A stretch of 63,905 nt of DNA, counting the filler, from Conidiobolus incongruus B7586 (lineage: Eukaryota): assembly GCA_000697335.1 (NCBI GenBank). It is 8 parts of 8 records of this genome, joined end to end, with 100 filler letters (N's around TTAATTAATTAA, not from the genome) between each part and the next. Parts side by side here need not be neighbours in the genome. Positions count along the whole stretch, not along the records: positions 34,630 to 56,732 come from JNEM01006419.1; 7 more parts are not named here. One strand, written 5' to 3'. Both the position numbers and the translations under genes were made by a program. The notes beneath the pieces are model-generated. The model ran no database searches, had not been told where the DNA came from, and saw nothing but the letters and a program-made list of their open reading frames with translations. The stretch's first letter is position 1. Every line of letters begins with the position of its first letter. Below are positions 20,030 to 56,205 of the stretch, in pieces.

Positions 20030-20541
20030 ATAGTTTTATATATTAGTTTAAATAAAAAAATAATAAACTTTTTTATTTTTAATTTTCAAAAATATTACTA
20101 GTTTTAAAAAATAATATATATATATATATATACTTTATAAATATTTTTTTAATAAAATATTTTCAATTTAATATTTAAAGTTAAATTTAATTATATTTAA
20201 ACTAGAAAATTATCATCAAAAGTTTATTATTTTAATATTATTAAAACTTAACCATAAATCCTCTGGAATCATTTAAAATTTATAAAATACTTATAAAACT
20301 TAACTTTATTTAAATTTATCATTTATCATTACATTTGCTATTTTAAAGTTAAAAAGGATATTATTTAAAATTTAATTAAATTAAACAAACTAATTTTAAT
20401 TGTAATTTTATATAAATTGAAAAAATAAAAAATATATATTAAAAATCACTTATTTATTTTAATTAAAAAATTATCTAAATAATTTAATATTAATTATATA
20501 AGTGTTTTATATATATTAAACTTTAAACTTAAATTAATTAA
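20030..20541 (+). mobile_element. Mariner relic (5' part), cut by gap
   Basis: AACCATAAATCCTCTGGAATCATTTAAAATTTATAA (~20250) is the reverse-complement match of 58175-58210. Boundaries approximate. Confidence 0.5.
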
Positions 20542-20641
20542 NNNNNNNNNNNNNNNNNNNNNNNNNNNNNNNNNNNNNNNNNNNNTTAATTAATTAANNN
20601 NNNNNNNNNNNNNNNNNNNNNNNNNNNNNNNNNNNNNNNNN
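20542..20641. other. Artificial contig linker
   Basis: N44-TTAATTAATTAA-N44. Confidence 0.97.
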
Positions 20642-21262
20642 TTTTAATTTAAAAATTAAAATTATTCTTAAATATAAAATATCTTTGTAAAATTAATAAA
20701 GGAATTAAAACTTGGTTATATTATAATAGTTAAAATAATAAATAAAAAAATTGAGCGATATAAATCAAAGTTATCATATATTTATATTCTTTAAGATAAT
20801 ATTTTGTATTATATTAAAACTTGTATTATTGATTAACTTAAAAAAATTAAATCATAGTTTTCAAGTAATTTTTTAATTATCTAATTTTAACCTAGTTAAA
20901 TATTTTTAAGATTAATTTTAAAAATAATAAAAACTCTCCTATTAATAAAATATTTAATTAAACTCTAAAAGTATATTTAAAAGTTTTAAAATGAAATTAA
21001 TTCTTTTTAATATAGAGGTTAATTGATTTTATATTTTATAAACTTAAGAAAATAGGAAAAATAAAAGATATATATATTAAGTCTTAATATTTATATTATA
21101 ACCAATATACATAACTTTGTAACTTATTTTGTTTGAATTTTAAATTCTGATATATTAGTTAATAACCATTATAAATATGTTAAATATATTTTATTATAAA
21201 GAAATAATTTTTTTGATAATATATTTAACCTTTAATTTATTGGATTTAAAATTAAATTATTA

Positions 21263-22529
21263 CTTTGTTTTTTTTATTATTAGGGATTTTTTCAATTAAA
21301 AATAAATAAACATTTTAATATATGATATATAAAAATAAATATATAATATTAATTTAATAATTTCCTCTATTATTAATAACTTTTTGCTATATCTTTAACA
21401 AACTTCTAACACCTAAAAAACAGTTCTTTTTATTAAAAACTAAAATCTAATATTTTATAAATTAATTAAATTTTTCATAAAAATTTTCTTTCCTATAAGC
21501 TAGTTTTTTAATTGCCTAAAGTAATTATAATCAAATAGGTTATAATCTAAGGAATATACTAGATATAGTAGTTATTTCCAGTTATTTTTAAATAGAATAT
21601 TTTTTATAGCTTTAGATTTATATATTTTATATTTATCATATAAAAAATAAGCCTTTTTAAATTATATTAAAAACACTTATTAGAAATAATTTTATTTAAA
21701 AAAATATAAAGTTATTAACAATTGATTTTCTTATAAGAATTAAATAAAAATAGCATATACTATTATAATCTATTATAATATTTATAAATCATTTATCAAC
21801 AAAATATTTATTGAAAGAAATTTATAAAAAAGGTTGATTTAGCTTTATTTAACACCTTGATTTGTGTTTTAATAAAGGATTATACATAAGGATCCAAGTT
21901 TCATCAATTAAATTGATTAACTGTAAAAGTTTAGGCTTCTGGTAATATTTTAATAAGTTTTGTTTAGTAATAATTATTTTAGCTTTTTTAAGCTTTATTT
22001 GAATTATAAGGTATCTATTTTATTTTTATTTATGAATTTGAATTTAAACTATGATATATACAAAATACTTATAAAATTAATATTAAAATGCTTAGATAAT
22101 TATCTAGCTAAAATAAAAAGATAGTTTTCAATATATTTTTTCATTTTATTAATAATTGAAAAAATAATAATAGAAATTAGTTTTTTATATTTTAATAGAT
22201 TTTAGATAATTTCTTTTTTAATCTTAAAGTAATTTACCTAGCAATAAATTGTTGATTTGGATAATATTTTATTAGTAAAAGTTCTTTATAAATTTTATAT
22301 AATTTTAAAAGGTTTATGTTTAAGTTTTATTGATATTAAAATAAAAGACTTTTGATAATAATTATTTGGTTTAAGTATAATTAAATTAAACAGCGAATTT
22401 TAAAAAATTAATATATATATTAAAAATATATAATTTCCTATTAACTTTGTATATATTAATTCATTTCAAACTAATATTATATTTCAAAAATCAAAAATTC
22501 AAAAATTTCCCATTGTTTCAAATTCAAGG
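21263..22529 (-). mobile_element. Full-length mariner-family (DD34D) relic, ~1.27 kb, hypermutated
   Basis: Minus-strand translation retains IDETWILMYNP, YSLDYNLFDYNYFRQLKN*L.GK and GVRSL..I*QKVI..RG.Y. Degenerate ~30-bp inverted ends with TA on both sides. Confidence 0.8.
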
Positions 22530-23249
22530 TAATATAAATAAAAATATAAATCATTGTAATTTCATTATTTATTTTTATAAATAGATATATATTAAGAGAT
22601 ATTATGATTAAAATCTTTATAATTTTATAGTAAACATTTCTATATAATAAATATAATTAATAATTTGACTTTATAATTAATATAAATTAATTTTAGCAAA
22701 AATATATATTTTATATAAAATTTTTATATATAACCTATTAATAATCAATTATAGAAAAATAGTTTATATAATAATTTTTTTCACTTTATATTATATTAAG
22801 AATCCAAATTAATTAAGAACTTAAACTTTTAAAAAAATAAAATTTTTATTATTATTAATAAAAGCCTATTATATTTTAATATTTAAAAATATGGAAAAAT
22901 ATTAAAAATAAAAAAATTAATGTAATCAAAAGTTTTTTCAATACTAAAATATTTTTAAAATCAATAAATATATCAGATTTATTAATTTATATAATATTAT
23001 CAATTTGATAAATCTTTTTTATAGCTTATTATTTAATTTTATATAAAAATTTAAAATTCCTTTAAATATAAGAAAGTGGTATAAGTTTAGTAATATAATT
23101 TCTGAAGATATTTTATTATAATTAAATTTTTTAAAATTTTTACTTATAACTAAAAATTAATCATTAATATACTTAAGCTTAGATAAGATTAATCTTGAAT
23201 TGTTAAAAATTTTTATATAAAAATATCTTTAATATTAAGATATAAAAAA

Positions 23250-23820
23250 ATTAAAAGGATCTCCATGGCAAAAAATTGACAAATTAAAATATTATCTTAA
23301 GTTATTTATTGCAATTTACTTGCATTTACCCTATAATAAACAAGTTTAATTATAAAACCTCAATAATAGAGGAACTCCTATTTTCCAACCATTGGATTAA
23401 TCAACCCTTTTTTTTCTAGCTTAATATAAATATCCCATCCATTTAAAGTATTAATTTTAAGCAAAATAACTATATTGATTATTAATGAAACTATTTCATA
23501 ATAAACATATTATATTGTTATTATTAGAAATAGCCTTTCTTGAATAATATGGAAATGGTTCTTTAATATATCCATATTTAACATACCTAACAAGTTTAAC
23601 CCTAACTTTCCACCATTTCCTTTGGGATTATATATGATTCTCTATGTTTTATTATTTGTATCAATCTTTTTTTATAATATTTTGGGATTCTCAATTAATA
23701 ATAAGACTAGATTCACATATAAGATATTGATAGTTATGATGACTCTTCATATATTTAATACCCTAGGGAAGCACTATTCCTGACTCCCTGAACCACAGAT
23801 TAATTTATATTTGTTTGGTC
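23250..23820 (-). mobile_element. Possible LTR-retrotransposon integrase remnant
   Basis: GC-richer patch. Minus strand gives frameshifted KHRES..YNPKGNG..(VE), resembling the integrase H..S.PYHPQ.NG..ER motif. One motif only. Confidence 0.3.
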
Positions 23821-24833
23821 TTGATATTACTAAAAAGAATTATTTTTATTATTATATATTTGGTAGATAATTTATTACCTAATATTAAGTAAAAAATTAT
23901 GATCAATATTAGACAAGTTGAATTAAATTTTTCAGAAAAAAATATATAAAAGAATCTTTGATATATTATATAAAATATAATGAAATATCATTTTATATAC
24001 CTTTTTTAAAAATATTTCTATAAATTGTATTTTTATAATATTATTAGTCTAGGGATATTGTCTGATTGGTAATTTTGAAAATATTGAAATATAATAATTT
24101 GAATTAATAATATTAAATATCAAATGTCCAAGCTAGTAACCAATATATTGAATGAAATAAAATTGTAAATATTATCTGGTTAAAAATTCTCACATATATA
24201 ATTGTGATCCTTATGATTATACATCTTTTCTTCCTTGAAAGAATTGACTTGGAGGATTAATTTGCAAATTTGATTCAAGATCAAAACAAGTTTGGTGGTT
24301 AATTACTATTTTGTTTCATAAAGAAACTTTTGGTGTGAGAAAATTGCCTTGAGTTTAAAAAATTCTTATTAATAATCATAGCAAATATTATTAAATATGT
24401 TATATCTATACTTATTTTTTTTTAGTTTTAATAAATCATCGCAAGATATATCTTTTATTTGTTGATAATTCAAATCGAGAATATATAACTTAATATCAAA
24501 AGCTCTAAGTGTATATGGTTTGATATTGTTTAATAGAATGACAATATAAAGCGATTAATCACTACAAGTATTTATATATATATATATACACGCTATTTTG
24601 ATGACAGCATTTTTTATATTATATTTTTTATACAAGTGCTAATAAAGATTTTATTAATTTTGAAATCCATAATAGTTATTTATTGTATACAAGTTATTTT
24701 AATGAATATTATATATTCGATCAATAAATAATTAGTTTTGCTTATTGTCATAAGCTAATTAACTCTTAATTACAGTCTACTATATTCATTTTATTGATAT
24801 CTTTATATCACTGAATTAGGATATATTGATATT

Positions 24834-25778
24834 CTAAAAGCGGAATATACTTTGTAGAATTGATTTACATCTTGCTTTAGACCTAACCAATAGGAATAAA
24901 AATTCATTATTTACCTCTGGTTGAAACGAAACAGTAATTAATGGATTTAGGCAGATGGAACTATTAATCATAGTAAAAACAGTAGCATCTAAAAATGGAG
25001 TCCTTTTGAATCCAATAGCAAATTTCAATATCATAGTGATATAGGATAACATAAAGCACACATTATATAGTACAAACACCATGAAAAGCTGAAATGATAG
25101 TTTAAATTTTTGATTCCTAATCATTTTCAAGCTGACCCTATCTCCATTATTAATTGCTTCCCTTTTCATTATATTCAGTTGCTGATTAACTCTCCATCCA
25201 ACAGCAAAGTAACAATAGGTGGTAGTCCAGCAGGGTATAACAAAACAAAAAGCCAAGACAAACATGATTCGAATCGATGTTGGATCAGATCCAAAAAATG
25301 AGTGGCAGTGAATGAATGATAAAGATGGTTTGGCATCATTGGTTATAGCACCATATAAAAATAAAGTAGTGCATGGAGTACCACCAATTAATAATACGCA
25401 TATCCAAAATCTTAGGCTTCGCTCAAATTTGTGACAAATCATAAGATATCTCAGTAGCGCTAATATCATAACAATGACAATTTCAAACCGGAGGAACCAT
25501 TGCATCACGAAGCCAAATATCTGGCACTGAATACTGTCTCTTGCTAAAAAACCATAGCCATAAATAAATTTGAATATAGTTAGAAGAAGCACCTCACTTC
25601 CCTCACAAATTTCAAAGCAGCATAGCAATAATATTAATTTAATTTCTGTAGGCTTTTTATCACATCTGGTAACAATTAAATATACTAATACTATATTTAA
25701 TCCAATGTTGAATACAGATGAAAATGATAATATAGAGTTAAAAGTGATATGAATGAAATTTAAATCATTAATATCCAT
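24834..25778 (-). CDS. Class A (rhodopsin-like) 7TM GPCR-like protein, copy 1, 314 aa
   Basis: Seven hydrophobic segments, TM1 Asn, TM3 Cys (IQCQ) with ECL2 Cys (FIHC), ALLRY at the DRY position, LNPLIT at the NPxxY position, then a helix-8-like tail. Confidence 0.88.
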   Translation of the reverse strand: MDINDLNFIHITFNSILSFSSVFNIGLNIVLVYLIVTRCDKKPTEIKLILLLCCFEICEGSEVLLLTIFKFIYGYGFLARDSIQCQIFGFVMQWFLRFEIVIVMILALLRYLMICHKFERSLRFWICVLLIGGTPCTTLFLYGAITNDAKPSLSFIHCHSFFGSDPTSIRIMFVLAFCFVIPCWTTTYCYFAVGWRVNQQLNIMKREAINNGDRVSLKMIRNQKFKLSFQLFMVFVLYNVCFMLSYITMILKFAIGFKRTPFLDATVFTMINSSICLNPLITVSFQPEVNNEFLFLLVRSKARCKSILQSIFRF

Positions 25779-26792
25779 TAGTAATAAAAATAAAATATTT
25801 CAACTCAATCTTTTTCTATTAAATACTTATTAAATGTAAGGTATTTATAAGTTTGATTAACTAAATATTTTTATAATATGTTTCATAATAGTTATAATCA
25901 AAACTATTATATTTATTCATTAATATTTAGAATTAAAAATGATATAAAAAGTTTTAAATTTTTTCGTTTAATTTTCTATGAAATGATTGGATTAATTAAA
26001 TGGCAATGAGAAAATAATTTTCATTTTGTACCATTATGTAGTAAAATGTTATATATTCGGATCCTGAGGTTTGTATATTAGAAAAAAATTATAATGATAT
26101 GAAAGATATTTAATTTTGTTACTATTATAGTGATAAATAAATAATATTTTACATTAATAATATAAAAATGGATTATTTTTAATAAACAATATGAATAAAT
26201 TTGACGTTGATATAAATTTGAATTTTCATAAATCTTTTCATACTCAAAAAAAAACTACATTTTAATTTTTAAATTTCAAATTTTAAACAATTTGATAATA
26301 CAATATCTAATAAATAATCTTAATTATAATTTATTAATTTTTTTGTTTTTAGTGCAACAATTGTAAATATATTATCTATTATACATCATTTCTGAATTCA
26401 CAATATTGAATTATATAAAATGTAAAATGAATTCTTAAATTAAGATAATTGAATTGTATATTTATTAGCTATATAGTACTATTTTAATATAAATAAATAT
26501 CATAATTACATCAAAGAGAATTATAAAAGTATTTTTTATATAGTTATCAGCTTAATTTTCCTCTATTATATTATTAAAGTCATAAATAGATATTGAATTT
26601 CGTAACTTTGAATTACTTCAACTTAGATATTATCTAAAATATATACAAATAATTTTCAGTTTTAAATTGTAAAAAGAAAATATTTAAAATATTCTTCAAC
26701 GTCAGACTATTTTTTGGTTTCATTGATTAATAATTATATTTAAAATGATGTTTAATAGTAACATCTATCATTATATAGTTTGTAAAAGTAGA

Positions 26793-28985: not shown

Positions 28986-29939
28986 TTATTGATTTGAAAA
29001 TGTGAATAAATTCTTAAATATTGATTTACATTTGGCTTTCGACCTAACCAGTAAGAAAACAAATTCATTATTTACTTCCGGCTGGAATGAAACTGTAATC
29101 AATGGATTTAGGCAAATTGATGAATTCACCATACAGAATATTAAAGCATCTAAAAATGGTGTTCTTTTAAACCCAATAGCAAATTTAAGTATAAAAGTAA
29201 TATATGAGAACATAAAGCTACCGTTGTATAATATGAAGACCACCGTTAACTGAACAACGAGTTTAATTTTTTGATTTCTAATCATTTTCAAACTAACAGT
29301 ATCACCATTGATAATAGCTTCCTGTTTCATAATATTGAGCTGCTTATTCGCCTTCCAGCCAATTGCAAAATAACAAAAGGTAGTCGTCCAGCATGGGATC
29401 AGAAAGCAAAAAGCGATCATAAACATTATTCGAACAGAACCAGGATCTGAGCCAAAAAACGCATGACATTGAATATACGAAGGTGAAGGCCTTCCATCGT
29501 TAATTATTGCACCATATAAAAAGAACGATGTTGTCGGAGTTAATCCCAAAAATATAATCATCACCCAAAATTTAAGACTTTTTTCAATTTTATACCATAC
29601 CATAACAAATCTAATAATAGAGAGTACGGTAACCATTAGGATTTCAATCCTGAGAAACATTTGCATAATGAAGCCATAAACCTGACATTGAATAGTTTCT
29701 TTATCCAAGAAATGATACCCAAAAATAAATTTTAGAATTGTTAATATTAGAATTTCACTTCCTTCTATTATTTCTATACTACAAAGAATCATAATTAAAA
29801 ATATTTCAGTAGATTTTAAATCACATCTGGTTCTTATTAAATAAACTAATAATATATTTAATCCAATATTGAAAACTGAGCAGATAGCTAATACTGAATT
29901 AAAAGTTATATTAATAAAATCTAAATCATTTATATCCAT
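28986..29939 (-). CDS. Class A-like 7TM GPCR-like protein, copy 2, 317 aa
   Basis: Close paralog of copy 1 (MDINDL.FI.ITFNS, GFKRTPFLDA, SSICLNPLITVSFQPEVNNEF). IRF at the DRY position. Confidence 0.88.
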   Translation of the reverse strand: MDINDLDFINITFNSVLAICSVFNIGLNILLVYLIRTRCDLKSTEIFLIMILCSIEIIEGSEILILTILKFIFGYHFLDKETIQCQVYGFIMQMFLRIEILMVTVLSIIRFVMVWYKIEKSLKFWVMIIFLGLTPTTSFFLYGAIINDGRPSPSYIQCHAFFGSDPGSVRIMFMIAFCFLIPCWTTTFCYFAIGWKANKQLNIMKQEAIINGDTVSLKMIRNQKIKLVVQLTVVFILYNGSFMFSYITFILKFAIGFKRTPFLDALIFCMVNSSICLNPLITVSFQPEVNNEFVFLLVRSKAKCKSIFKNLFTFSNQ

Positions 29940-31359
29940 AATATATTATTAAATAAATTTCCAATTATATTTTCTTTGATTAATGAGAATTATCAACTTT
30001 GAATTAGTTGTCATTGAATCTTTATATAAATACTATTTCAAAGAGTAAACTCATTAATTAGTTTTAAAAGGTTCTATTAATTGTACTAATAATGGAAATA
30101 TATAATAATGTTTAAACAGTATTTATGTTTTTATTAGTAAATTATTAGATCAATTTGATTGGTTTTAATCTGTGGCTAATGATTGACTTGTACCAAAATT
30201 ATTTCTCAAATTTTTGATGATAAAGATTAAAAAATAAGATTGTAAAATTTTATGGTTCTCAATATATAATTATTTAATTATTTTATAAAACTTATTAATT
30301 TTATTCTAATGTTTGTTTTTTTACTAATACTTATTATTTTAAATTAAATGGAATTTTATATGGTCAGTTTAATGATAAAACTGACGATTCAACAAGATTA
30401 ATGATATTATTAAATACATATTTGTGTGTTTGTAATAAAGTGGATTGATGAAAAATACCAAAGGTATATAATTTCAATCAATTTAAATATAAACTTGATC
30501 TGTATATTTTCAATATCGATGATTAGCAATTTTTTCATTATGAAAAATTATTTTTATTGATAAGTTTTTATAATCAAAATAGCCAAATACTATAATTTCA
30601 ATATCTATACTTGATGAATTATAATTTTCAAAAATATTATGATGATTATTTCATCGTTTTTATATTCTTCACCAAGTAATTTTTGCTTATAAAAAATTTG
30701 GTAAAATTTTAATTTTGAAAAGATTATATTTAAACTCTAAGGAATAACTTCAAATTAACTATAATTATTAATATAACAATCATGTCTTTTTATTATCTGT
30801 CATATAAATATTAACAAATAATATTCATTAAAAGTTTTAAGTAAAAATATTTGAATTCAAAGTAGTTATAAATTTATTATCTTATATCGTTTCTGAAAAT
30901 TATTAAATTAAGTGTATATTAGGAGGTCAAGTACAAATTCCTAATAATTTTAAATGACTAATAAGTCAGATAAATCTATTAATTCGAAATTCTTACTAAT
31001 ATTTATTGATCTTTAATCCTCTTGAAATTATATACTGTATTGAAGGATCACTCGATTCTTTGTGTGCATTTTTATTATCAAGTTACTTGTATTTATTCAA
31101 TGAATTAATAGGTTGGATTAAGAAGGAAAATCAGCTGTTATTCAAGTAATAAACTTGCCACAGCTATACTGATAAATATAAAATAACAAATATAAACATT
31201 ATAGCTTTGACAAATAAATGAATCACAATAAATTTTTGAAATTTAAAATTTATAAATTGTTATTGAGTTTAAAAATTGAACATTATTATAAAATAAATTA
31301 TCAGGTTATTAATTTGATTCAATGTATTAAATATTTAAAAATAATTTATAACTTAGTAT

Positions 31360-32260
31360 ATAAATATATTTCGAATAATTTTTTCACAACTTGCTTCCAG
31401 TGTTGCCAAACAGAATAAAAACTGGTTATTTAATTCTGGATAAAGCGACGAACTGATTAAAGGATTTGAACAAATTTAACAATTAATCATTAATAGAACA
31501 AGACCATCTACAAATGGAGTCTTTTTGAATCTGATAGCAAGTTTTAATAACAAACCATTATAGAATAATATGAAAAGAAGGTTGTATATAAATAATACTA
31601 TCGGCAATTAAATAATTGATTTAATGTATTGATTGATAATAATTTGAAAAAGTTGAGTATCAGTTATATTGAGCCTCCTTGTTCATTGAACATAATTGCT
31701 CATTCACATACCATCCCACCAAAAAATAACAATAAATTGGAATTCAATAAGGGAGAAACTATCTTGCAGAAGTGGGAAAAATCATTTTGGCGGAGAACGA
31801 ACCTGATCAGAGAAATTGAATTCACTGAATATTTGATGTTGTGAATTTATAATCTTTTATTATCATCCTATATCCAAATGGTATTGATAATGGAATTGGC
31901 ATTGTAGTCATCATTTACAGGCAAACTTCAATCATCATCCACAACTGTCAACTATTATAAATATCTTAATGCCAGCAAGATTGTAACTATATACTTCTCA
32001 CTTAAAGAAGATCTAGATGAAGAAACCAAGAATTTTTCAACTGATAGGTTCAGATATAAATTTATAATCATTAACTAGTTCTAAAATTACTATTACATAA
32101 TATGACTACTCTCCACCAGTTCAAAGAAGCAAAGGTCCTATATCAATATTGATTTCATTGTTTGTACATCATTTGACAATTAAATAAATCAAAATTTATT
32201 TAACATTGAATATAGATATACACATCAATATAGAAATCTTATGTAGACAACATTAATATC
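31360..32260 (-). pseudogene. Decayed GPCR-like paralog
   Basis: DNA collinear with intact copies: CAAATGGAGTCTTTTTGAATCTGATAGCAAGTTT corresponds to LAI.FKKTPF, and GATTAAAGGATT to NPLI. No open frame. Ends approximate. Confidence 0.75.
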
Positions 32261-34629: not shown

Positions 34630-37257
34630 TAATAAAATATTAATATAATATAAATATAAACAAAGTTTAATTAAGCTTTGTAAATAAATAAATCAATATC
34701 AATATATTAGGAGTTATATATCATAATATTTATATATTTAAATTAATAAAATATATTTTTAGATTTAAAAATAATAAAAAATTTAAGACAAAATAGATAA
34801 ATGTAAAAAAAGAATTTATTTAATAAATAATATAATATTATCTTTATAATTAATTAAACTTAAAAAATATATAATTTATTAATTTATAATTAAATTTATT
34901 ATATAAAACTATAGATAAAAGCTGAAAAAATAGATCTTTTAATATAATTTTACTAAAGTTTTAAAAAATTAAAGTTTTTATTATTAATTATAATAAATTA
35001 AATACACTGACCTGCAAAAGTGAGTCATAAAATCAAAAATATATATATTTTAATTAATAACTAAAACAATTGTATATATTAGATTACTTGAAACTATAAT
35101 ATATAATTAAGGTATATTATTTAATAATAGATAAATATATTTAGATATATTTAGTAAACTATTAGCAAAAATATTAACCCTTAATATTTAACCAAGGTGA
35201 GTCATAAATTTGCAAGTTTTTGAGATAAGGGGATATATTTAACAATATATAACCATATCTTTTTTCTCTCTTTGCTATTATTTTATATAATATTTTACAG
35301 ATATACTAAATTCTTTTTATTAGTATCATTATACCTAAATCCCTCTCTAAAAAAATCCACTTGTGTATTAATTAACTTTGTAAAGAAGGTAAATCAACTC
35401 ATGATATTGCTAGAATTATTAGTGTTAGCTAGTCTACTATAGCTAGGGCTGTTAAGAATAACAATAAAGAAACATTTAAACTTAAACTTAGGTGTGCTAG
35501 GATCATAGATAAACATGATGAGAAGTATATCTGTAGGTTGGTTAATACAAGCAAGTGTGGTACTGCTGTAGAAATACAGCAGGAACTATAAAACTATATA
35601 GGAATATTGGTTAGCACTAATACTATTATATGTGCTTTACATTAGCATGGATACTACTCACACTTTAAGAAAAAACACCCCCAACTAAAGAAATCCCACT
35701 GTAAAGCTAGGCAAGAGTTTGAATGTTGCTACTAATGTTGAACTAAAACTAATTAGAGTAAGGTTATTTAGTCTAATGAAACAAAAATATACTTTAGTGG
35801 ATCTGATAAAAAAGCTAGATGCTTCAGAAAAGATGTAGAACTACTTTGTGACTATTATGTTAATTCTACCCAAAAGTATAGTGGTGGGTCAATTATTGTT
35901 TGGGGATATATGTTGTCTTCAAGTGTAGGGTATCTTTGTAAAGTTAATAGGAGAATTAATGCTGAGATGTACTAAAGTATTCTGAACAATGAATTGAAAA
36001 AAACCATTGAATAGTATGGGTTAAACAAATCTGATGTTATTTTCCAGCAAGATAATACCTCTTGCTATACTACAGCTTTTACTACCAAATAGCTTAAAAA
36101 TAACAAGATAACAGTTATGAAGTAGCTTCCTCAATCTCCTAACCTTAATCTAATTAAACACCTTTAGGATCAGTTAAAATAAGCTATTAAAGCTTCCCCC
36201 CAGTAAAAAATTTAGATCAACTTTGGGAATATATTCAAGAAGCATAGAACAAGATTAACCCTTCCTAGTGTAAGAAGTTAGTTGATTCTATACCCCATAA
36301 ACTTAAAGAAGTTAGAAAAGCTAAAAGTAGATACACTAGGTTTTAATTTTTTTTTATCACCAAAAACCTGCAAATTTATGACTCACCTTAGGTAAAATTT
36401 AAAGGTTTATATTTTAGCTAATTAATAGCTAAATATCATCATTTAATGATATATATAACTAATAAATATAATAGATTTTAATTATTTATTTTAGGTTTAT
36501 TTCATTAAATATTAATCAAGTTATTAGTAAAAATATAGGTGTTTTTGATTTTATGACTCACTTTTGCAAGTCAGTGTATATCTACAAATTAAATTTTTAT
36601 AATAAATTACTAAAATAAGTGTATTTTAAGTTTCTTTGTATATATTTTATTAAAAAATAAATTAAATAACTAAATTTACCTAAATTAATTCCTTTTAAAA
36701 ATTAATCTAAAAAAATATTAAATATAAATAAATATTAATTATTAAAATATATTATAATAATATATAGTATTTTATAATTAGTTTTTAAGAAAAATCAGTT
36801 AATAATAAACTTTGTTTTATTTTTATAAATAAAAATATTATTAATTAGTATTTTTAAAAAAATATAAAACACCTATTTTTAGTATAATAATTAAAAAAAA
36901 TATCTAAAATTAAAACTATAAAAAATTTTCTAACAAAGATAATAAAAAAATTATAAAATATATTATATTCCCTAAATTATAACCTATGTAATTATAGCTG
37001 TTTTAAGAAATTAAATAACTAGATTAATGGGAAAAAATTTCTATAGAAAAATTTAATTAATTTGTGAAATATCAAATTTTAGTTCTTATAAAAATAAACT
37101 ATTTTTTAAGGGTTAGAAGTTTAATGAAAGTATGGTAAAGAGTTATTAGTTATAGAGGAGAGTATTAATAATATATTAAATACTAGTTTTTTATATTGTA
37201 TATTAAAATGTTTATTTCCTTTAATTACAAAAAATTCTTATTATTTAAATTACAGAG
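34630..37257 (+). mobile_element. Mariner relic interrupted by the Tc1 element at 35005-36576
   Basis: 36965-37170 translates to YSLNYNLCNYSCFKKLNN*INGKKF...GVRSLMKVW*RVISYRGEY*, and the end TACAGAG mirrors CTCTGTA at 57141. The part left of the Tc1 aligns only weakly. Confidence 0.6.
35005..36576 (+). mobile_element. Full-length Tc1-family DNA transposon (DD34E), 1572 bp, IR/DR ends. Transposase pseudogene ~35331-36346.
   Basis: TA-CACTGAC..GCAAAAGTGAGTCATAAAATCAAAAA and its inverted copy ending CAGTG-TA. Decayed motifs *SKVI*SNETK, GGSIIVWG, FQQDN, *LPQSPNLNLIKHL*, with 34 residues between the second D and the E position. Confidence 0.95.
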
Positions 37258-39689
37258 AAAAAAAATAATCTCTAAAATATCAAGCCTTTTTCCTTCTGAT
37301 GAGATATTATTAAATATCTCAATAACACTATACTCATAGCCATATTTATTTCTAATCACGAACACTAAAATATAAATGTACAATATTAATATAGATAACT
37401 TCCTTAATACAGGAAATATTATACATAAACTAATTTTAATACTTTATAATAAATATATTAATTTCTATAGATATATTACTTCAGCATAATAAAAGGGCTT
37501 AATTACCGAATTTGGTGGTAAAACTAGCGTATAATAAATAACTTAAAAATATATATTCGAACCAATTGTAAATATCTACAAGATTAAAACTATAGACTGG
37601 ACTTTTGTTTGTAAATTAATTATATTTATAACCAGCCATCTTTGAAAAAATATAATTATAAGGTTGTTATTATAAAACCAACTATTTAAATAGTTAATAG
37701 ATTTTTATATTCAATTTGGTTTAAATTAAATAATTGATTAGTTATTAAATATATTGATATATTTTATTCAAATGAATTAATTAAATATAAATATCAGGTT
37801 TGTTAGTTGATAAATTAAAATCATTATATTCAATGATATATATAAATGAGATTAAAATGGCGAAATATAATTATATTTGTTATATTTAGTAACTACTTTA
37901 ATTTGCTAAAATTTTGAATTTTAGGTTTTATATAAAGTTGAGATAATTGTCCAAAATTTAAAAAATAATTTCTTTATGGCCAATAACTTTATTATATACT
38001 TTGAATTTAAAGGAGCAATCTGAGATATTTGTTTATCTAAAAGTGTGATATGTAACAAAAACGATAAAGAGTATTAATGAATGCTTTAATATCTTTCCAG
38101 TTTTTATCGTTGTCAAATTAATTAAATAAAAGCTTTTATATATTTGATATAAAATATTTTTTATAAATCAAACCCAATGTATTAATATATGCATCAAGTA
38201 TATCCTGTCAACCCTAATTAGCATTAAATAAAATTATATATATTTTGCATTTATTTAAGTTAAGGGCATTATTTAAAAATTATATTTTACTTATAGGCTA
38301 GTTTAAAATTACATTTTCAAAATTCTTAAAAAATTCAATATAGTTGGATTTTTTAAAGCTGTGAATAATTATAATATTATATTTTGTTTAATTGATATAT
38401 TTTTGTAATAATCAAGACAGAAATAATCATGATAATTCATTCATATAATAATATGTTGTTCCAATTTAATATATCTTTCTCTTTCAATATTGATAATATA
38501 GCTTTTGCAATCGAATACCAATGTTGACTTTTGAACTTTATTTTTCAATATAAACAAGGTTTAGTTAAATATTAATATTTTAATTTTTACTAATTGTAGT
38601 CATACAATTATTGATATAATGATATTCTTGTATTAAATTTATTATTTAGTTATTTGATTATACAATAACATTCTGGAATATAATCAAATTATAAAATTAT
38701 ACTTAGATAATATTTTTCGAATAAATTTCAAGACTAGGTCACAATAATTAGAAAGTGAGTGTATAATATTAATTTAAAATTATTATATTGAGAAATCTAG
38801 TTCAACATTACGATCAAAATTGATTTTTTTATCTTACATTGTTATAAAATTGATAAAAATAATATATTATCAATCCTCTTTATAGATCTTGATTTCAAAG
38901 GATGAAATATTTTAATATTCATCATTTGAACTAATTATTAAATCAATAAATATTATATATTGATTTAATTAATTCCATAAAATATACTCCATTAGCATTT
39001 TGGATTTTATTAATATAATGATTTTAATAAAAATTATTTTGAAAAATGTAAAATTGTAAAAAAAATGGTAACAAGTACTTAGCTTGGAAAAAAAATTTAT
39101 TTAAGGAAATCTTTTAATAGGAATGTATGATTCAATTTTCAATCCATATTTATATATTTTTAATAGACTAGATTCCCAAAATAATTTTCAACCAGTTTTG
39201 TTTATGGCATAGTGACTTAAACAAACTTCAAATTTGGATATGTATTATATTGTTCCAAAATAACTTTTCCTTTCTAGAGTAAAATAAAATATTTGATTTA
39301 TTTAATCAATGAGTTATTCCTATATGTACCAAATCACAAGCTGTTTATGTGGATAATATTTACCAACGATTCAATATTTCAAATACACTCAGTGTGGTAC
39401 AGGAATTTGAAAGTGAACTTCTAGATTTATTGAAAAAAATTATTTTTTTGAAGTAATTAGATAATTGAATAGTATTACTGCTTGACTAATTATTTTAAGA
39501 TTTTTTATCCAAATTAATAAATAATTGTTGTATAAAAACTATTTTTGAGCCTAATATGAGATAATGTATTAAGGTTAATTTTTTAAATTAACATCATTAT
39601 AAAATACAAAGTTAATTGTTATTAAATATAATAATTTATAAATATTATCTTACAATCAATTTATTTTAGTTTAAATCTATATATTGTAA

Positions 39690-40643
39690 TTATGTATTTC
39701 TCCAATTAATCATCTTCATAATTAAATATTTACATTTGATTCGAAAACGTAATAATAACACCAAAAATTCACTATTTACTTCTGATTGAAATGTAATGGT
39801 CATGACTGGATTTACACCGATAGTAATATTAATCATAATAAAGATTAAAACGTCAAGTAAAGGAGTTCTTTTAAATCCCATAGTGATTCTCATGATCGTT
39901 GTAACATACGATAACATAAAGTTCGCGTTATATATTATAAACACACACATCAATTGTGATATTAATTTCAATTTTTGAGATTGAATAGTGTTCAATAAAT
40001 CTTGATCTTGAGAATGATCTGCCATTTTCTTCATTGCATTCAAGTTCTTATTGGCCTTCCAACCGATAGCGAAATAACAATAGGATATGATCCAACAAGG
40101 AATAGCATAGGATAATGGTATGATATATACCATAATATATGAGAAAGCGCTCGGTGTTAGAAAAGCTTGACAGCTGAAATATGAAACAGTAGGTTTTGCA
40201 TCGAGAATTGCTAGACCATATAAAAATATTGAAGTCATAGGTAAACACTCTAAAATTACTAATAAGATCCAAAAAGCTAAACTCTTTTCCTTTTGATGGC
40301 ATACTATCAAATATCTTAACAATGCCAAAACACCTACTGTGATAATTTCCAATCGACATGACCATTGAATGAAAAACCCAAAATAATAACATTGAATAGT
40401 GCCTTGATCGAGAAAATGGTACCCGCAAACTAGTTTAGATACTTGTAAAACAAACGTATTAATTCCCAATAATATCTCAATCCCACATAAAATTAAGGTC
40501 AGTTTCATCTCAGTAGTTTTCGTAGTAAACCTTGTGTATAATAAATAGCTCAATATAGCATTAAATCCAATCATAAAAATTGATAATAATAAAACAATAG
40601 AATTAGCTACAGTATTTAGTACTGTTAACTCTTCAACAGCCAT
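39690..40643 (-). CDS. Class A-like 7TM GPCR-like protein, copy 3 (most divergent), 317 aa
   Basis: Same architecture: IQCYYFG, ALLRYLIVC, GFKRTPLLD, VNPVMTITFQSEVNSEF. Confidence 0.88.
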   Translation of the reverse strand: MAVEELTVLNTVANSIVLLLSIFMIGFNAILSYLLYTRFTTKTTEMKLTLILCGIEILLGINTFVLQVSKLVCGYHFLDQGTIQCYYFGFFIQWSCRLEIITVGVLALLRYLIVCHQKEKSLAFWILLVILECLPMTSIFLYGLAILDAKPTVSYFSCQAFLTPSAFSYIMVYIIPLSYAIPCWIISYCYFAIGWKANKNLNAMKKMADHSQDQDLLNTIQSQKLKLISQLMCVFIIYNANFMLSYVTTIMRITMGFKRTPLLDVLIFIMINITIGVNPVMTITFQSEVNSEFLVLLLRFRIKCKYLIMKMINWRNT

Positions 40644-43049
40644 CTTTTCAAAAAAGAATATAAAAATGAAGTTAACATTTTAAAATCTAATGTCAAAGTA
40701 GATCTTAATTTTATATAGCTCATTGAGTTCAAATTTTGTCATTCGTTTGTGACTAAATGTGTTAACTGGATTCATAATGCGACGAATTAATTCAAGCTAA
40801 GTTTTAGCCTGGATGGTTGTTTAGATCATCAAATAGAAAAACAGGATATTACATAAATTTATAAATCACGAATTATTAAAATTTAAACAATTCTGAATGA
40901 TGTAAACAACAATAAAAATTATCAATTCATTCCAAAAATATTTAAATTAGACTTAAGTATTGTAATAATCCATTGAAAAAAGTAATAAATAGTTCAATAT
41001 GAATTATATTTAAAATTAATTACTTTTAAAAAATACTAGTTTAAATAATAATTAAATTTTATAAAGTATTTAATGGAATAATTTAATACTATTAAATCAC
41101 AAGTAAAAGATAAAAACTTGAATTATAAATTCTTCTCTATCAATTTAAAATTTATTGATATATTATTTTAAATATCAAAAATAAAATTTGAAATTTGGAA
41201 TAATTTGAAATAAAATTTATGAATTTGAATGTGAAAAAATTCAAAAAAATTCTAAACATAACTCAAATAAATAATTTGAATAATCATTATTTTTATTATG
41301 GAGTCTTTTGTTTGAAAATATCTCTATTATTTCAATTTTATCATAATACCAGCCAAAATCTTCTGAATTTTATTTCGTTAGATATCAAATATTGAACTAT
41401 ATTAAAAGTTAGGTTATAAATCAGATTAGAAATAAAACTATATATAAATTTTTAATCTAGTAGCCTTCATTATTAGAAATTATTTTAGACCGCTCTCTTA
41501 GCAGCTGTCTAGCCTCACACAATTTTCCTTTGATTAAGGATTGAAATTATAAAATCTTATATTTGAAGGTATATCAGTTATATTTGAATACATGTGCTAT
41601 CTGAGTTACAATTTGTAACATCCTGAAGCAGCTATCATCGCAAAGATTAAGATCAGAGTGTTTAGTGAATATGTAGACTTGTATAACTCTGTTTAAATAA
41701 TAGTTTTTAATTAGTTTAAAATTATGGCTATTTACCTCATAATGCAAAATTGCGAGTTTTTATATTTCATATAAAAACAGCCAACTTGAAATGTTAGTGA
41801 ATAAAAGTGATATAAAAGCATACTATTTTTTTAAGTTAATAACTTATGAAAAATCACATCCTTATAGTTAGTATTAACAACTGTCATTTTTTCTGAATAG
41901 AGTTTGTTATTGCAATATATATAAGTGGTTGATTATGGATAAGTTAAAAATATGCCTTATATTGTGGTATACATTTATAAGAATTCAAGATTTATCCATA
42001 TCAGAATGTAAAATGACGGCACAGAATATCTATTATAATAATCAGGACTTTTCTGTGTTCTATTTTTTTTAAATTTTTGGTTAAGTACTAGAATATACAG
42101 TACCTATTTTTTTGATCAATTTAATTCTATTTTTGAGTGTAATCAAGATGGTTATATTACATACTTAAAACTTATCAGCTAATTTCCTGGATAAACAGTT
42201 AAATCATATGACAGTTTTTATTTTTTTTCATGACTGTTTTCCTATATCTACTGATAAAGTAGCCAAATTTAGATATTATTTGATTAGGGCATCTCCCCTA
42301 ATCAAAATGATTGATCCAGAATCGTACAGTAAAGCAGGATAGAGCCTTGTTTTGACAAGCCTTGAGTAAGGTTTGATGGATCATATATAGAGATAGTTTA
42401 GTAAGATATATTACAGTGATGAAATATCGTAGATAGATAATGCAAAGGTTTGCAACATTATTATTTTTGTTCATATTTTGAATAAAAAATAATGTTATAA
42501 AAATTATAAGATTTAGAGTATTTCAAATTCAAAGAATTAATATCTTAAACATCACTTTTCGAATATATTTAAAATAATATTAAATATCATTTAATTGAAA
42601 TTAAATATAAATCAGATAATTTTATATTTGTATAATTTATATGTAATCATTTGTGATAATTTTAATAAAGAATGCCAAATATAAAATTAACAATATTTAT
42701 TAATGTGTGAGATTATATATTATGCTTAGAAAAATACACTATAAACTCACTTTTTAAATCCAATAAACTATTTGATACAACTGAGTTGGATATATTTGAT
42801 CGCAATGTCAAAAAATGTAGCAATATCCTAAAATTTAAAAATATATGAAAACACCATTTCCTTTAAAAGACTCTAGTTTTGATTTATGTTCAATTTTTTC
42901 TTATTTTTTAAAATATACTTGAAACCTTTTTTGTGCAAAATATTATTTATCAATCAATAGAATTGTAATTAAATAAGAGTTATATTAAAAGATAGGAAGA
43001 AAGTGTAGATTTAAACTTAAAAAATGGTTGAAAGTTTGTCCATGAATAA

Positions 43050-44208
43050 TGACATTATATACTAGTATTAAAATTATATTAATATACAAACTAAATTTAA
43101 ATATAAATACATTATTTTTAAATATCAATAAAGGATATAAAATCAACACTCTTTTTGATTATTCATAACTTTTTGCCATACTTTTGACAAATTTCTAATA
43201 TTTAAAAAAAGTTCTTTATTTAAAGATTAAATTTAATGTTTTATAAACTAATTTTTTGTAAGATTTTTTCCTTCAAGTATATTTTTTTATTGCTTGAAAC
43301 AGTTATAACTACATGGGCTGTAATTTAGTTAATATACTAGATATATATATATTATTTTTTATAAAATCTTTTATAACTTAAAGTTTATATATTTTATATA
43401 TTAAATAATTAGTTTATATTGTAATAATGTACTAAAATAATTTACATCTCTTGATAAATATTGTACTTATCTATTATAACTAGTAATATAGGCTATTTTC
43501 ACTTAATATTTTATTTTTTCATTAAATTGAAAATTTTACACCCAAGCTTAAGATTTATTAATTATATTAATTCAAACAAGAATCTTTTGATTTTAGGTTA
43601 TATTTTAATAAGCTTATTTGGCAATAGCTACTCTAGTTTTTTTCTGAACTTTGTTAATAAATAAGGTATTTATTTTATACTATTATTAACTAAACTAAGT
43701 TTGAACTCTAATATATAATACTAATATAATTGATATTTTATTACCTTGATCATCCTCTAGTTAAATTGAAAATGTGATTTTAGATATTTTTTACCTTATT
43801 AATATATGAAAAAATAAAAATGAAAATTATTATTTTAGATTTAAGTAAATTTTAAATAATATACCTTTAACCTTTAATGGCAAATTTGTTAATAAATAGT
43901 GAATTTAGATAAAATATTATCTTGATAAGTTGTCTATAAATCTTAGATAAGATTAGAGGGTTTATAATTTAGTTTTAGTAATTCTGAAATAATAGGCTTC
44001 TAATTATTAATATATAAGTATGATTAAATTTATCTTGAAAATTTAAAATATATATTTTAATGAAAAATTTATTCTGAAAAATTAGATATATAATGTAAGA
44101 ATATTAACCCGCTTACTTATTTTGTAAACAATCTATTTTTAAAAACTAACAATATGTTTGAAAAATCAGGACTTACAAAATAAGCCATTTTTTTCTTTCT
44201 AAACTAGT
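43050..44208 (-). mobile_element. Mariner relic, strongly decayed
   Basis: Blocks collinear with 57141-58330 (AATAGCTACTCTAG at ~43623, TTAGAGGGTTTAT at ~43953) and end block TTGAAAAATCAG at ~44158. Ends approximate. Confidence 0.65.
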
Positions 44209-45089: not shown

Positions 45090-46034
45090 TTAAATCTTAA
45101 ATATATTTTTTAATGCTGATTTACATTTTGCTCTTATCCTTACCAAAAAGAATAAAAACTCATTGTTCACATCAGGCTGAAAAGATACTGTAATTAGTGG
45201 ATTCAAAGATATCGAGCAGGTTATCATGGTAAAGACTATAGCATCTATAAATGGCGATCTTCTATACCCAAACTCATATTTTAATATCATTGTAATATAT
45301 GATAGCATAAAGCAGCAATTATACAGTACAAACACAACAGTTAGTTGAGCAATTAACTTGAGCTTTTGTTTTCTAATTTGCCGTAGACATTGAGTATCTT
45401 GATTTAACTTTGCCTCATACTTTATCGAGTTGAGCTGTTTATTGACTTTCCATCCAATTGCAAAATAATTAAAGGTAGTTATCCAGCAAGGGATTAAAAA
45501 ACACAAGGCCATACCCAGATTAATATGAGTTGAAAATGGGTCACCTCCTAAGAAAGAATGACATTGAATATAAGACGGCGATGGTTTTACATCGCCCATA
45601 ATAGCACCATACACGAAAAAACAAGTAGCAGGAATTGCCCCAACCGAAATAACTAACACCCAAAATCTAATTCCTCTCTCAATTTGAAAACAGACTATCA
45701 AAAATCTCAATAAGGAAAGGACGCATACAATAACAATTTCCCCTCTATTTAACCATTGCATAAAGAAACCATAAAAATGGCACTGTATCGTATTCTTATC
45801 AAAGAAATGATACCCGTTGATGAATTTAAAAATTGCTAAAATGGCGACTTCACTACCAATTGTTAATTCTGTAAAGCACAAAATTAAAATCAATTTTATT
45901 TCAGTTGTTTTGTTATTAAATTTGGAAAATAATAAATAAACTAATATAATATTAAATAGTATATTAAATAAAGAGGAAAAAAGCAATATAGTATTGAACA
46001 ATATATTTATCACATCCAAATTATCTATGTCCAT
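45090..46034 (-). CDS. Class A-like 7TM GPCR-like protein, copy 4, 314 aa
   Basis: Start placed at ATG 46034 (MDIDNLD) by comparison with paralogs. SLLRF, YIQC and LNPLITVSFQPDVNNEF present. Confidence 0.88.
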   Translation of the reverse strand: MDIDNLDVINILFNTILLFSSLFNILFNIILVYLLFSKFNNKTTEIKLILILCFTELTIGSEVAILAIFKFINGYHFFDKNTIQCHFYGFFMQWLNRGEIVIVCVLSLLRFLIVCFQIERGIRFWVLVISVGAIPATCFFVYGAIMGDVKPSPSYIQCHSFLGGDPFSTHINLGMALCFLIPCWITTFNYFAIGWKVNKQLNSIKYEAKLNQDTQCLRQIRKQKLKLIAQLTVVFVLYNCCFMLSYITMILKYEFGYRRSPFIDAIVFTMITCSISLNPLITVSFQPDVNNEFLFFLVRIRAKCKSALKNIFKI

Positions 46035-48923
46035 ATTATATTTTGTCAGTGTATTAAATTTTTTTCCTTTGTTATGAATATAAATTTTAGTTAACGATAT
46101 TAGATTTATAGTCAATTAATGAGTTTGTATTAAACTGGGTTTATAAATCACCAAAATATTATTCTAAAAACTATCTATTGCGGTTAATATATAGTTGATT
46201 TATATTTGTATTACTAATCTAGAAGATTTTTATTTAATTTAATTTAAAGGCTGAAAGCATTTAGAACAATATTAACATTCAGAAAAAACTATTACCATAT
46301 TTTATTATTACCATCTAAAAATACAAAATTGAAAAGTTTTATTCAAATATATATATATATATATCCTTTTTTGATATTATAGTGAAAATAATAAAGATAA
46401 TATATTATGAATATTTTCTTATATTATTATCAAGTTAATTAATTCACTATTCATTAAATGGTAGTTTGATTATATAAAAATATTTTGATTCATGGCCTAA
46501 TATATTAAGATATAAGTATTTAAAATTTTGTTTTATGATAATTATTAAGACTTTATTTCCAAATATTTCCAAGTATCTTTATACTGATACAGTACACTTA
46601 TAAAATTTTTTCATATAAGTGTTATAAATTGAAGCAGATTTGCAGGTTGCGCAGGTTAGATAAAACTACTATTGATTATATTTGGCCATTACTCATATAT
46701 TTTCTCCTTAAGTCCAATTGACATTTTTATCAAAATGATTAAGTATATTATATAAAATTTATTAAAAATATAATTTGAATTATTTTATCTTTTGAAAATT
46801 TAGTAAAATAGGTAATTCACACCAAATTATCCTGGCTCTAACTTTAAAATAATGTAAAATAATTTTTGTGAATTGATTTTTCGAAGAGTTCAGAAGTTTT
46901 ATATGCAAATACAAAAATAAATTATTTGATTTTAAATTATTTCAAACAGTCTATAATGAAAGATTTCCTATTTTTAAGATTTTAAAATTTCTCAAAATCA
47001 ATTTAGAAAATTTTAATTAATCAATTGATTTGATGTGTGTTTAAATATTGTAATACCTGCTATTGATTTAACCAGTAGCATAATGTTAGATACAAGAAAT
47101 ATTTTTTATCAAAGTGTTATATATAATATAATTTTTTAAAATCTGAAAATTGGCAATAAACTTGATTTATTCTCAATAAATATATCAATTTAAAAATATA
47201 AATCTATATCTTATAAAATTGGATAATTTTATCTGAATATTAAAAAATATATAAAATTTGGTAACCCGAATATTTTCAATAAAAGAAGAAATTTATTATT
47301 AAAAATGAAATCAAAAATTTAATTGAATTTTTTTCTATTGAAGGTATTGTATTAAAAAACTCTTTAATTATAAGCAAAGTTTGCTTTGATGTTATGCATG
47401 ATTATGATGATTCGAATTCTCAAAATAATTTCTTTTGAGCGATTTAATATTTGTTGGTCGTTTTTCAGTATCGAAATATGTTGATATCAGGAATTAAAGC
47501 AAATTTTATAGCTATAACTAACAAATTTGTAAATATCAAATTTAGTACTGAAACATATATTGACGCAAGTCATCAGATAATTCATTATTTTTTGAATTTA
47601 GAAACGAATGTTTTAATAGACATTAACCTATTTAAAAACAATCTTGAATATACATTTAAATATAAAATTTTTAATATTTTTTCCAAGTATATGGATATTA
47701 TTAAAATTATCTATCATAGTTACATATAATACCCATTCATTACATTTCTTTATTTAAAATGATATATTAACAGTATTTTTAATAAAATATAACTCAATCA
47801 AATATAAAATAGTATATTATTAGTAATGTTGTAAAATTATCATTGAAATAAAAATATCAATAGAAATATATTCATGGTATTCATTTAACTAAATGTTTTA
47901 TATAAAAATAATTCATTTATATATTACAATTTTAACATAATTTGATTGTTCTGTATAGCCTATTTATTAAACTATGAATTAAGATTTGCCATCTTTATAT
48001 TAATTCATAATATCATATTTTCTATTTTGAATTTTATCAATAAATTTCTATATGCTTAATTTTTTACAATAAATTATATATGAGTATAATATGTCATTTT
48101 ACAAATATATTTTACAACTTTATTTAAATGAAGTAAAAAAATATTACTCAAATTCTTTCCCAACATACCAAAATATCATAAATAATAATACCAATAAATT
48201 ATACTAAATTCAAACTAAATACTAACTAATTTTTGCAATAGATTTTTATTCATAAATTTATACTTAAAATATATCCTTGTTAATAAGTTAGTAATATATT
48301 AATATGAAAGTGATTACCACTTGATAATCCCTTATTGTATCTAATTTCCAAGTTTTAATACTTAAAAATAAACTTAATATCTCTATAATGAATAATTTTG
48401 AATGATGCTAATATAAATATTATATATAAAAATTAGATAAAAACATGGTAAATATTATAACAGTGGGTAGGTTGAACCAAATTATATGCATGATTTAAAT
48501 AAATTTCAATATATAATTTTAGTTAGTATTTTAAAATTTAAAAAAAATGAGTCAAAGATGTTTGATTAATAAAATAACTAACTAATTTTATATTTAGTTG
48601 AATAATTTTATTATTCAATTTATAATTATTAATGTACAAAATCAAAATTCAATTTTAAATTTTGAATAAAAATTGACACCCTAATATATAATTCTATGTA
48701 AATAACTAAATAATATTACTTCAATTGATATTGTTCTCTCATTTTTATACATTTGAATGATAATATATATTAAAAATAGAAATTTAATCAATAATATTAT
48801 ATTGATTGAGCTGAAACAGCATCCATTGTAAAGTCGCTTATATTCTATTTCATTATCAAATTACATTGTTTCTAAATATTGTATAATAAAATTATATACA
48901 TTGATTGTAAAATCATTTATTAG

Positions 48924-49865
48924 TTACACTCGAAGTATACTCTTAAAGATAGTTTTACATTTTGCTTTAAATCTTACTAATAAAAATAAAAATTCGTTAT
49001 TCACTTCAGGTTGAAAAGAAACAGTTATCAAAGGATTAAGACAAACAGAAGAGTTCACCATAACCAAGATAAGAGCGTCCAAAAATGGTGTTCGTTTAAA
49101 TCCAATTGCGAATTTTAGAATCATTGTGATATAAGATACCATAAACAGGAGATTGTATATGAAGAACACCATAGCCAATTGAACAAAGAGTTTAATTTTT
49201 TGATTTTTAATCATTTTCAAACCTTCTAAATTTTGACTACATTTGGCCTCATTTTTCATCTTATTTAATTCATGATTGACTTTCCATCCAACAGCAAAAT
49301 AACAAAATGTTGTTGTCCAGCAAGGGAGTAAAAAGTTCGTTGAAGTAATTAGCATCATCTTAATAGAAAACGAATCTGAACCCAAATACGGCAGACATTG
49401 AATATAAGACGGTGTGGGCTTATAATCTTTGATAATAGCTCCATATAAAAATATAGTAATACAAGGAATAGATCCAATAAATAATATCACTAACCAAAAT
49501 TTCAATCCTCTTTCAAACCGGTAAAAAATCATAAGATATCTAAGTATTGATAATATTGTAACAATGAGTATTTCCAACCTGAAAAATATATGCATAATAA
49601 AACCAGATATTTGGCAACGAAGCTGATTGGTTAAATAGGTGTACCCATATATTGATTCTAAAGTTGTCAATATAATCATAAAAGTGCCTTCACCAAGTTC
49701 AAAAAAGCACAATCCCAAAATTAGTATAATCTCAGTAGATTTAAAATCACATTTTTTAATTAATAAATATATTAATATTACATTCAAACTGATATTAAAA
49801 ATAGAGGATAGCGTTAAAAATATTGTAAAGAATTTATGAACAAAAGTTATGCTAGAGAATATCAT
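48924..49865 (-). CDS. Class A-like 7TM GPCR-like protein, copy 5, 313 aa
   Basis: LRCQISG, SILRY, YIQC, GFKRTPFLDA, LNPLITVSFQPEVNNEF. Confidence 0.88.
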   Translation of the reverse strand: MIFSSITFVHKFFTIFLTLSSIFNISLNVILIYLLIKKCDFKSTEIILILGLCFFELGEGTFMIILTTLESIYGYTYLTNQLRCQISGFIMHIFFRLEILIVTILSILRYLMIFYRFERGLKFWLVILFIGSIPCITIFLYGAIIKDYKPTPSYIQCLPYLGSDSFSIKMMLITSTNFLLPCWTTTFCYFAVGWKVNHELNKMKNEAKCSQNLEGLKMIKNQKIKLFVQLAMVFFIYNLLFMVSYITMILKFAIGFKRTPFLDALILVMVNSSVCLNPLITVSFQPEVNNEFLFLLVRFKAKCKTIFKSILRV

Positions 49866-56203: not shown

Positions 56204-56205
56204 TA

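Follow-up and report, generated by a model that had tools for sequence, protein, structure and literature searches.

Repeat-restricted C-to-T hypermutation of a Tc1/mariner transposon family in a Conidiobolus-like fungus

Neurospora-type RIP acts on duplications of any kind in the interval from fertilisation to meiosis and is burst-like, with strand-coordinated mutation at each sexual passage. RID/Masc1 is reported solely from Pezizomycotina (PMC5751038), and in Neurospora a DIM-2-mediated form of RIP that proceeds without RID has also been described (10.1101/115501, PMC11969663), this RID-independent route being homology-triggered (10.1101/115501). A Dim2-dependent mitotic C>T process was found in Zymoseptoria tritici (PMC8016269); the Dim-2 mutators of both fungi are strongly CpA-specific, and the latter spares CpG (10.1101/115501, PMC8016269). 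In basidiomycete transposons the effects are confined to CpG (Agaricomycotina) or to TpCpG (Pucciniomycotina) (PMC3318451).

The existence of a RIP-like defence outside Dikarya is disputed. A RIP index of 24.2% was obtained for Zoophthora radicans and of 2.4–5.7% for three other Entomophthorales, from which it was proposed, with major caveats, that RIP may be active outside Dikarya (PMC11105155, eLife 2024), whereas a 2025 screen of 1,239 genomes placed RIP-like signatures almost only in ascomycetes and classed C. coronatus as “no_rip” by k-mers (PMC12543289). The available portions of PMC11258239, PMC7862722, PMC13297926 and PMC10386755 contain no RIP claim for Zoopagomycota, and no alignment-based demonstration of RIP in Zoopagomycota was found in the literature searched, in which the coverage of subscription papers is incomplete. 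The preliminary description of the locus considered here had suggested that such a defence may be undescribed, which was an overstatement, as RIP in Entomophthorales had already been proposed from dinucleotide indices (PMC11105155).

The host and its dead transposons

The window, i.e., the whole stretch of 63,905 nucleotides that was analysed, is made of contigs chained by seven identical 100-base spacers. Most contig ends sit in transposon copies, and young repeats are therefore probably under-represented in the assembly. The host can be judged from the following genes:

39690–40679, minus strand: rhodopsin-like 7TM gene, which lies on the contig of transposon copies A and B and serves as an unmutated control and as a marker of the host
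24834–25799, 28986–29945, 45090–46115 and 48924–49871: rhodopsin-like 7TM paralogs

Altogether, the rhodopsin-like 7TM genes of 24834–49871 number at least five intact ones plus a pseudogene (~31338–31863); named relatives of this family are solely from Conidiobolus. The gene at 39690–40679 gave nine protein matches, both named ones being from Conidiobolus coronatus (48% and 44%); a cyclin had its best match at 51% and 415 bits (next 169) and clusters with C. coronatus KXN67186, and the top Atlas cluster for a 7TM paralog is mostly Zoopagomycota. These marker-gene matches point to Entomophthoromycotina, not Pezizomycotina, in agreement with the earlier proposal of a Conidiobolus-like member of Zoopagomycota, and by its best matches the host is assigned to the Conidiobolus-like Entomophthorales; the 51% of the cyclin and the 44–48% of the 7TM gene set it apart from C. 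coronatus NRRL 28638. When metagenomes were scanned with the 7TM alignment, none of 173 pattern matches was confirmed. Elsewhere in the window, an intronless ORF (16495–18474, minus strand) encodes 659 aa with a C-terminal SET domain, possibly a chromatin methyltransferase.

The repeats of the window are as follows:

35005–36576, plus strand: copy A, a dead full-length Tc1/mariner DNA transposon with flanking TA at 35003–35004 and 36577–36578
35005–35228, plus strand: left terminal inverted repeat of copy A (~225 bp), by sequence comparison
35331–36347, plus strand: transposase pseudogene of copy A (HTH_Tnp_Tc3_2, DDE_3, DD34E spacing)
36354–36576, minus strand: right terminal inverted repeat of copy A, 78% like the left one
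56204–56732, plus strand: copy B, left 529 bases, the rest truncated by the contig end, 96.4% like A
58633–60063, minus strand: copy C, heavily mutated, GC 14.9%, by alignment to A
61952–63536, minus strand: copy D, full-length, a more distant subfamily member, GC 17.2%, by alignment to A
61605–61713, plus strand: copy E, terminal fragment, by alignment
20668–21211, plus strand: copy F, an old remnant from the 3′ part, by alignment
21258–22434, no strand assigned: second repeat family, GC ~13%, nearly CpG-free, by similarity within the window
57136–58320, 36623–37260, 53322–54174, 20065–20541 and 43585–44092: further members of the second family, by similarity within the window

Copy A has a GC content of 26.6% and the lowest mutation load among the full copies of the window. 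A 12-base motif, read from the sequence, lies at either end of the left inverted repeat (35020–35031 and 35197–35208) and recurs in the right one (36375–36386 and 36550–36561), a layout that is of the IR/DR type. The transposase pseudogene matches PF01498 (HTH_Tnp_Tc3_2) above and PF13358 (DDE_3) below the Pfam cut-off; its catalytic positions D149, D241 and E276 have DD34E spacing, with two of the three mutated, and 14 stops in the first 288 codons are followed by a frameshift (a one-base gap near 36193). No near intact version of copy A was found in protein collections. The TA duplication, the inverted repeats with inner direct repeats and an HTH plus DD34E transposase of ~338 aa are as in other Tc1/mariner DD34E elements, from which the family differs in that every copy in the window is dead and the nearest intact relatives are only 45–47% identical. 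Copies A and B share one gap-free 22-kb contig (34630–56732) with three 7TM genes. A search for terminal repeats in the window copies of the second family gave none. Another repeat family pairs 55503–55862 with 63545–63905; the families other than Tc1/mariner, of which there are at least two, have GC 8–14%, are nearly CpG-free and are too decayed for classification.

Direction, context and limits of the C-to-T change

For 35331–35531 and 56532–56732 (201 bases), the preliminary description had reported 16 differences, with C/T or G/A throughout and no indels, nine of them in CpA and five in CpT, with one ancestral CpG resolved both ways. These counts were reproduced, the CpG lying at 35400–35401, and over the full 529-base overlap of A and B there are 19 transitions, 0 transversions and 0 indels. 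Between the ORFs of A and C, 193 of 200 differences are transitions and 7 are transversions; the counts for the whole copies are 226 and 11, and for the ORFs of A and D 194 and 30. With the ORF of A as the reference, C has lost C/G at 174 of 314 sites and gained it at 19 of 701 A/T sites, against 7 transversions in 1015 sites. The reported lack of CpG in the element also held (0 in copy A, 27.9 expected from base content), as did the ATA start codon and, by comparison with intact relatives, the substitutions D149N, D271N, P274L and E276K in copy A. The claim that all stops had arisen by C>T or G>A stood for 13 of 14; the remaining one arose by A>T at codon 284 (36180), and there is the frameshift in addition. 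This A>T is private to copy A, since C and D read AAA, and nearly all of the contig depth placed there has A at that position. The stop at codon 215 is ambiguous because copy D reads TAT.

Polarity was read from codons for residues that at least 70% of 14 intact relatives share. Changes at these residues that are reachable by C>T/G>A stand to the reverse as 23:0 in A, 50:1 in C and 42:0 in D; a further 8, 8 and 6 changes, respectively, are of neither type. The direction of change in the transposon copies, fixed in this way by conserved codons, is C>T/G>A. The load is very unequal, as A has lost 19 of 330 sites and C 173 of 330, and the two are only 7 transversions apart. These copy-to-copy counts come from four copies of a single family. 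The region 34900–36700 was also compared with four runs of one sample, possibly the source of the window; ~20,000–26,000 contig pieces per run were placed on it, and copy number cannot be read from the summed depth. Of the 443 variable places of the transposon family in run X1, 417 are transitions (333 C>T/G>A) and 26 are transversion places; C>T or G>A variation occurs at 155 of 214 C positions and at 178 of 229 G positions. The mutation spectrum is the same in the four runs of this one sample, and the Tc1/mariner family is clearly large, with its members mutated alike.

By context in A, copy C has lost 81/102 CpA, 71/150 CpT and 22/61 CpC sites (79%, 47% and 36%), which corresponds to per-site losses that exceed the transversion rate by factors of 229, 93 and 65, the lower bounds being 111, 45 and 32. 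When three copies were pooled, the losses were 157/309 at CpA, 168/441 at CpT, 52/219 at CpC and 16/27 at recognisable CpG. The order CpA > CpT > CpC is significant (p 2e-9), and CpG, being fully lost, ranks first; the context spectrum is CpG (complete) > CpA > CpT > CpC and is not a clean CpA signature. Among the best 40 of 458 rows, 13 of the 21 C/G sites of A that are lost in most other copies are CpA (p 0.008). No preference for the 5′ base was detected at non-CpG sites (0.38–0.43 for all four neighbours) and no strand bias, with C>T equal to G>A in A, C and D (p 0.16–0.82). The A–B differences alternate between the strands, and there are at least as many strand runs as after shuffling; in saturated copies such comparisons have little power, and several rounds of mutation would erase the signal.

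Six pairs of duplicates outside the transposons of the window, among them gene paralogs, have transition/transversion ratios of 0.6–1.7 and retain CpG. Non-CpG C/G losses per transversion reach 24.9 from A to C versus 0.39–0.67 in seven non-transposon duplicate comparisons (Fisher p 2e-44 against an MFS pseudogene pair), and losses and gains of C/G in such duplicates are balanced (100 vs 82, 38 vs 28 and 27 vs 25). The non-transposon duplicates measured are ~66–76% alike; all are old, with none young among the gene duplicates of the window, and they are therefore uninformative on whether young gene duplicates mutate. Observed against expected CpG is 8 vs 91.5 in transposon-type DNA and 218 vs 336.4 in unique intergenic DNA (p 3e-14), and for this window the observed/expected ratio is 0.65 in unique DNA versus 0.09 in repeats, the substrate index 1.38 versus 0.78. 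The preliminary description had named, as one possible refutation, the same rate and spectrum in unique non-coding DNA; in the window, unique DNA has kept both CpG and CpA. Within this window, hypermutation is confined to transposon-type repeats.

The window is AT-rich overall, with 20% GC in unique intergenic DNA and 21–36% at fourfold sites. In unique DNA the CpG ratio is 0.48 up to 250 bases from repeats and 0.80 at distances above 4 kb (p 0.018). CpG methylation that spreads outwards, or old repeats that escaped recognition, could account for this gradient; the CpA/TpA shift looked for in unique DNA near repeats was not seen. Some unique DNA beside repeats runs for ~2 kb without any CpG, e.g., 22395–24439.

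Transposons of other hosts served for comparison. The 72 metagenome loci with related transposases yielded 90 pairs at 75–99.5% identity. These pairs, which are not independent, have a median transition/transversion ratio of 1.0 (range 0.4–7.0), and for the 31 of them at 78–90% identity it is 0.84–1.8. Intact related transposons have GC 35–60%, with a CpG ratio of at least 0.4 in 35 of 38. Three related transposons (L011, L017 and L037) have ratios of 0.13–0.20, few stops and ordinary CpA content; theirs is a CpG-only decay, in contrast to the copies of the window. The second repeat family of the window has transition/transversion ratios of 0.7–2.3 and old copy F of 1.2–1.6, low values that may come from saturation in GC-exhausted copies.

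Two further duplications were noted. A 340-base sequence occurs at 5163–5505 and 60604–60945, with GC 42% in AT-rich surroundings and copies 76% alike, of which the one amid transposons has 2 CpG and the other 9; it has no ORF and no Rfam match (a search of the whole window gave 0 matches), and is possibly a non-coding RNA or regulatory element. An MFS transporter gene (1591–2919) has a decayed tandem copy (~6000–7269, minus strand), in which mutation is ordinary and balanced.

Candidate mechanisms and comparison with known systems

The C>T hypermutation of repeats in this early-diverging fungus is real, strong and repeat-restricted, and RIP-like in outcome. Of the earlier claim of a RIP-like defence, the repeat-restricted, directional C>T change stands, whereas mechanistic RIP, premeiotic and triggered by pairing, is not established; the spectrum lacks the clean CpA signature. 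It is not filed as RIP because RIP is defined by its trigger and timing, and this case is known from alignments; the spectrum also differs.

The reading preferred here, held at about even confidence, is a RID-independent, methylation-directed and enzyme-assisted repeat mutator. Complete CpG loss would be explained by maintenance methylation at CpG, and the graded loss at non-CpG sites by a second, all-context activity. Transposon DNA would then be methylated at CpG, probably by DNMT1, and in other contexts, probably by a Dim-2-like enzyme; the methylcytosines would become thymines far faster than by ordinary decay, through enzyme-assisted conversion, and C>T changes would gather gradually over many cell generations, not in single sexual bursts. 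These candidate enzymes are taken by analogy from the published gene list of a relative. In the gene table for C. coronatus, DNMT1, UHRF1 and HELLS are listed as present and DNMT4/RID, DNMT5 and Dim2 as not detected, and, despite the Dim2 score of this table, C. coronatus KXN73869 is sister to the Dim-2 clade with support of 99.9/97 (PMC10538959). Precedents are the Dim2-dependent mitotic C>T process of Zymoseptoria (PMC8016269) and the DIM-2 route of Neurospora that needs no RID (10.1101/115501, PMC11969663). Speaking against the preferred reading are the broad spectrum found here versus the CpA specificity of the known Dim-2 mutators, the scarcity of 5mC in Zoopagomycota overall (PMC11258239), and the flanks, since DIM-2 mutation in Neurospora extends into single-copy DNA (10.1101/115501), whereas here they have the weak CpG gradient and no CpA/TpA shift. 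The low transition/transversion ratios of the second repeat family, the “no_rip” class of C. coronatus (PMC12543289) and the basis of the counts in four copies of a single family also weigh against it.

A true RIP analogue, in which duplications are sensed by DNA–DNA pairing at the zygospore stage and mutated in a burst by a RID-like or Dim-2-like enzyme, is rated unlikely, though the weightiest of the rival readings. The near-pure, repeat-restricted C>T change with CpA as the best non-CpG target would suit it, as would the very unequal load of A and C and the missing close intact copy in protein collections; the homology-triggered route of Neurospora that needs no RID (10.1101/115501) and the index-level RIP of Z. 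radicans (PMC11105155) add to its plausibility. It is hard to reconcile with the equal strands, the shuffle-like runs and the alternating A–B differences, i.e., with absent strand coordination, and with the complete erasure of CpG. Moreover, the relative C. coronatus is listed without RID (PMC10538959), and the five intact 7TM paralogs and other duplicates bear no trace, though at 66–76% alike they are under the ~80% limit (PMC8016269). Absent strand coordination and maximal CpG depletion, together with the lack of clustering and the weak CpG gradient into the flanks, would instead fit passive decay, in which silencing methylation covers all contexts of transposon DNA and its methylcytosines deaminate slowly and spontaneously without a dedicated mutator. 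A preference of the methyltransferase could yield the context order seen. Phycomyces transposons do carry CG and CHH 5mC (PMC11258239), although in Agaricomycotina only CpG transitions are raised (PMC3318451). What makes passive decay rather improbable is the size of the effect, with 55% of C/G lost versus <1% of sites with a transversion and non-CpG rates at least 32–111 times the transversion rate. The mammalian CpG effect is roughly tenfold, and the non-CpG rates here are well above it.

A cause independent of methylation, be it a cytidine deaminase that attacks transposons or a C>T bias of the whole genome that selection masks in genes, is very unlikely. The AT-richness throughout the window would agree with it; however, APOBEC-type enzymes have a 5′ base preference, whereas neither this nor a strand bias is present here, and a genome-wide bias is contradicted by pseudogenes and unique DNA, which retain CpG and CpA with balanced loss and gain. 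That the pattern is an artefact, from a Pezizomycotina contaminant, DNA damage or misassembly, is scarcely credible: the assembly is fragmented at repeats and the four runs represent one sample, but A and B share their gap-free contig with three Conidiobolus-type 7TM genes, the TA duplication is clean with both element ends present, the spectrum recurs in all four runs and genes are untouched.

It is a tentative proposition, rated as doubtful, that Entomophthoromycotina possess a repeat mutator which is truly triggered by homology, lacks RID and relies on DNMT1 and a divergent Dim-2-like enzyme alone. If it were true, RIP-type defence would be older than Dikarya or would have had a second origin, and the RID-independent heterochromatin route of Neurospora would be the ancestral form. 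The present copy alignments, with their controls, are much stronger evidence on RIP-like defence outside Dikarya than dinucleotide indices. If the gene list of the relative holds for the host, a mutator working without RID or DNMT5 would leave two methyltransferases as candidates, and some species of the group can be cultured. The case bears on the contrast between small and gigabase-size entomophthoralean genomes. It also suggests that, where a genome is very AT-rich, a mutator of this type can escape k-mer screens.

Compared with the RIP of Neurospora and other Pezizomycotina (RID, DIM-2), the likeness lies in the massive directional C:G>T:A change in repeats, the nonsense-riddled transposases, the AT-rich relics and the favouring of CpA among non-CpG sites; the differences are a host in Zoopagomycota, whose relative has no RID listed, the erasure of CpG, the heavy mutation of CpT and CpC and the missing strand coordination. 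The Dim2 mitotic mutator of Zymoseptoria is similar in that >95% of its mutations in methylated repeats are C>T, compared to 193/200 transitions here, and differs in that >98% of its C>T changes are at CpA with CpG spared (PMC8016269), whereas here 81/174 are at CpA and CpG is gone. Basidiomycete transposons share the CpG loss in repeats (PMC3318451), but in the present copies all contexts are raised and non-CpG sites have no 5′ preference. Closest in subphylum and proposed process is the index signal of the Entomophthorales, which consists of dinucleotide indices in 1-kb windows (PMC11105155), whereas the present evidence comes from copy alignments in a Conidiobolus-type lineage, with direction, context rates and controls.
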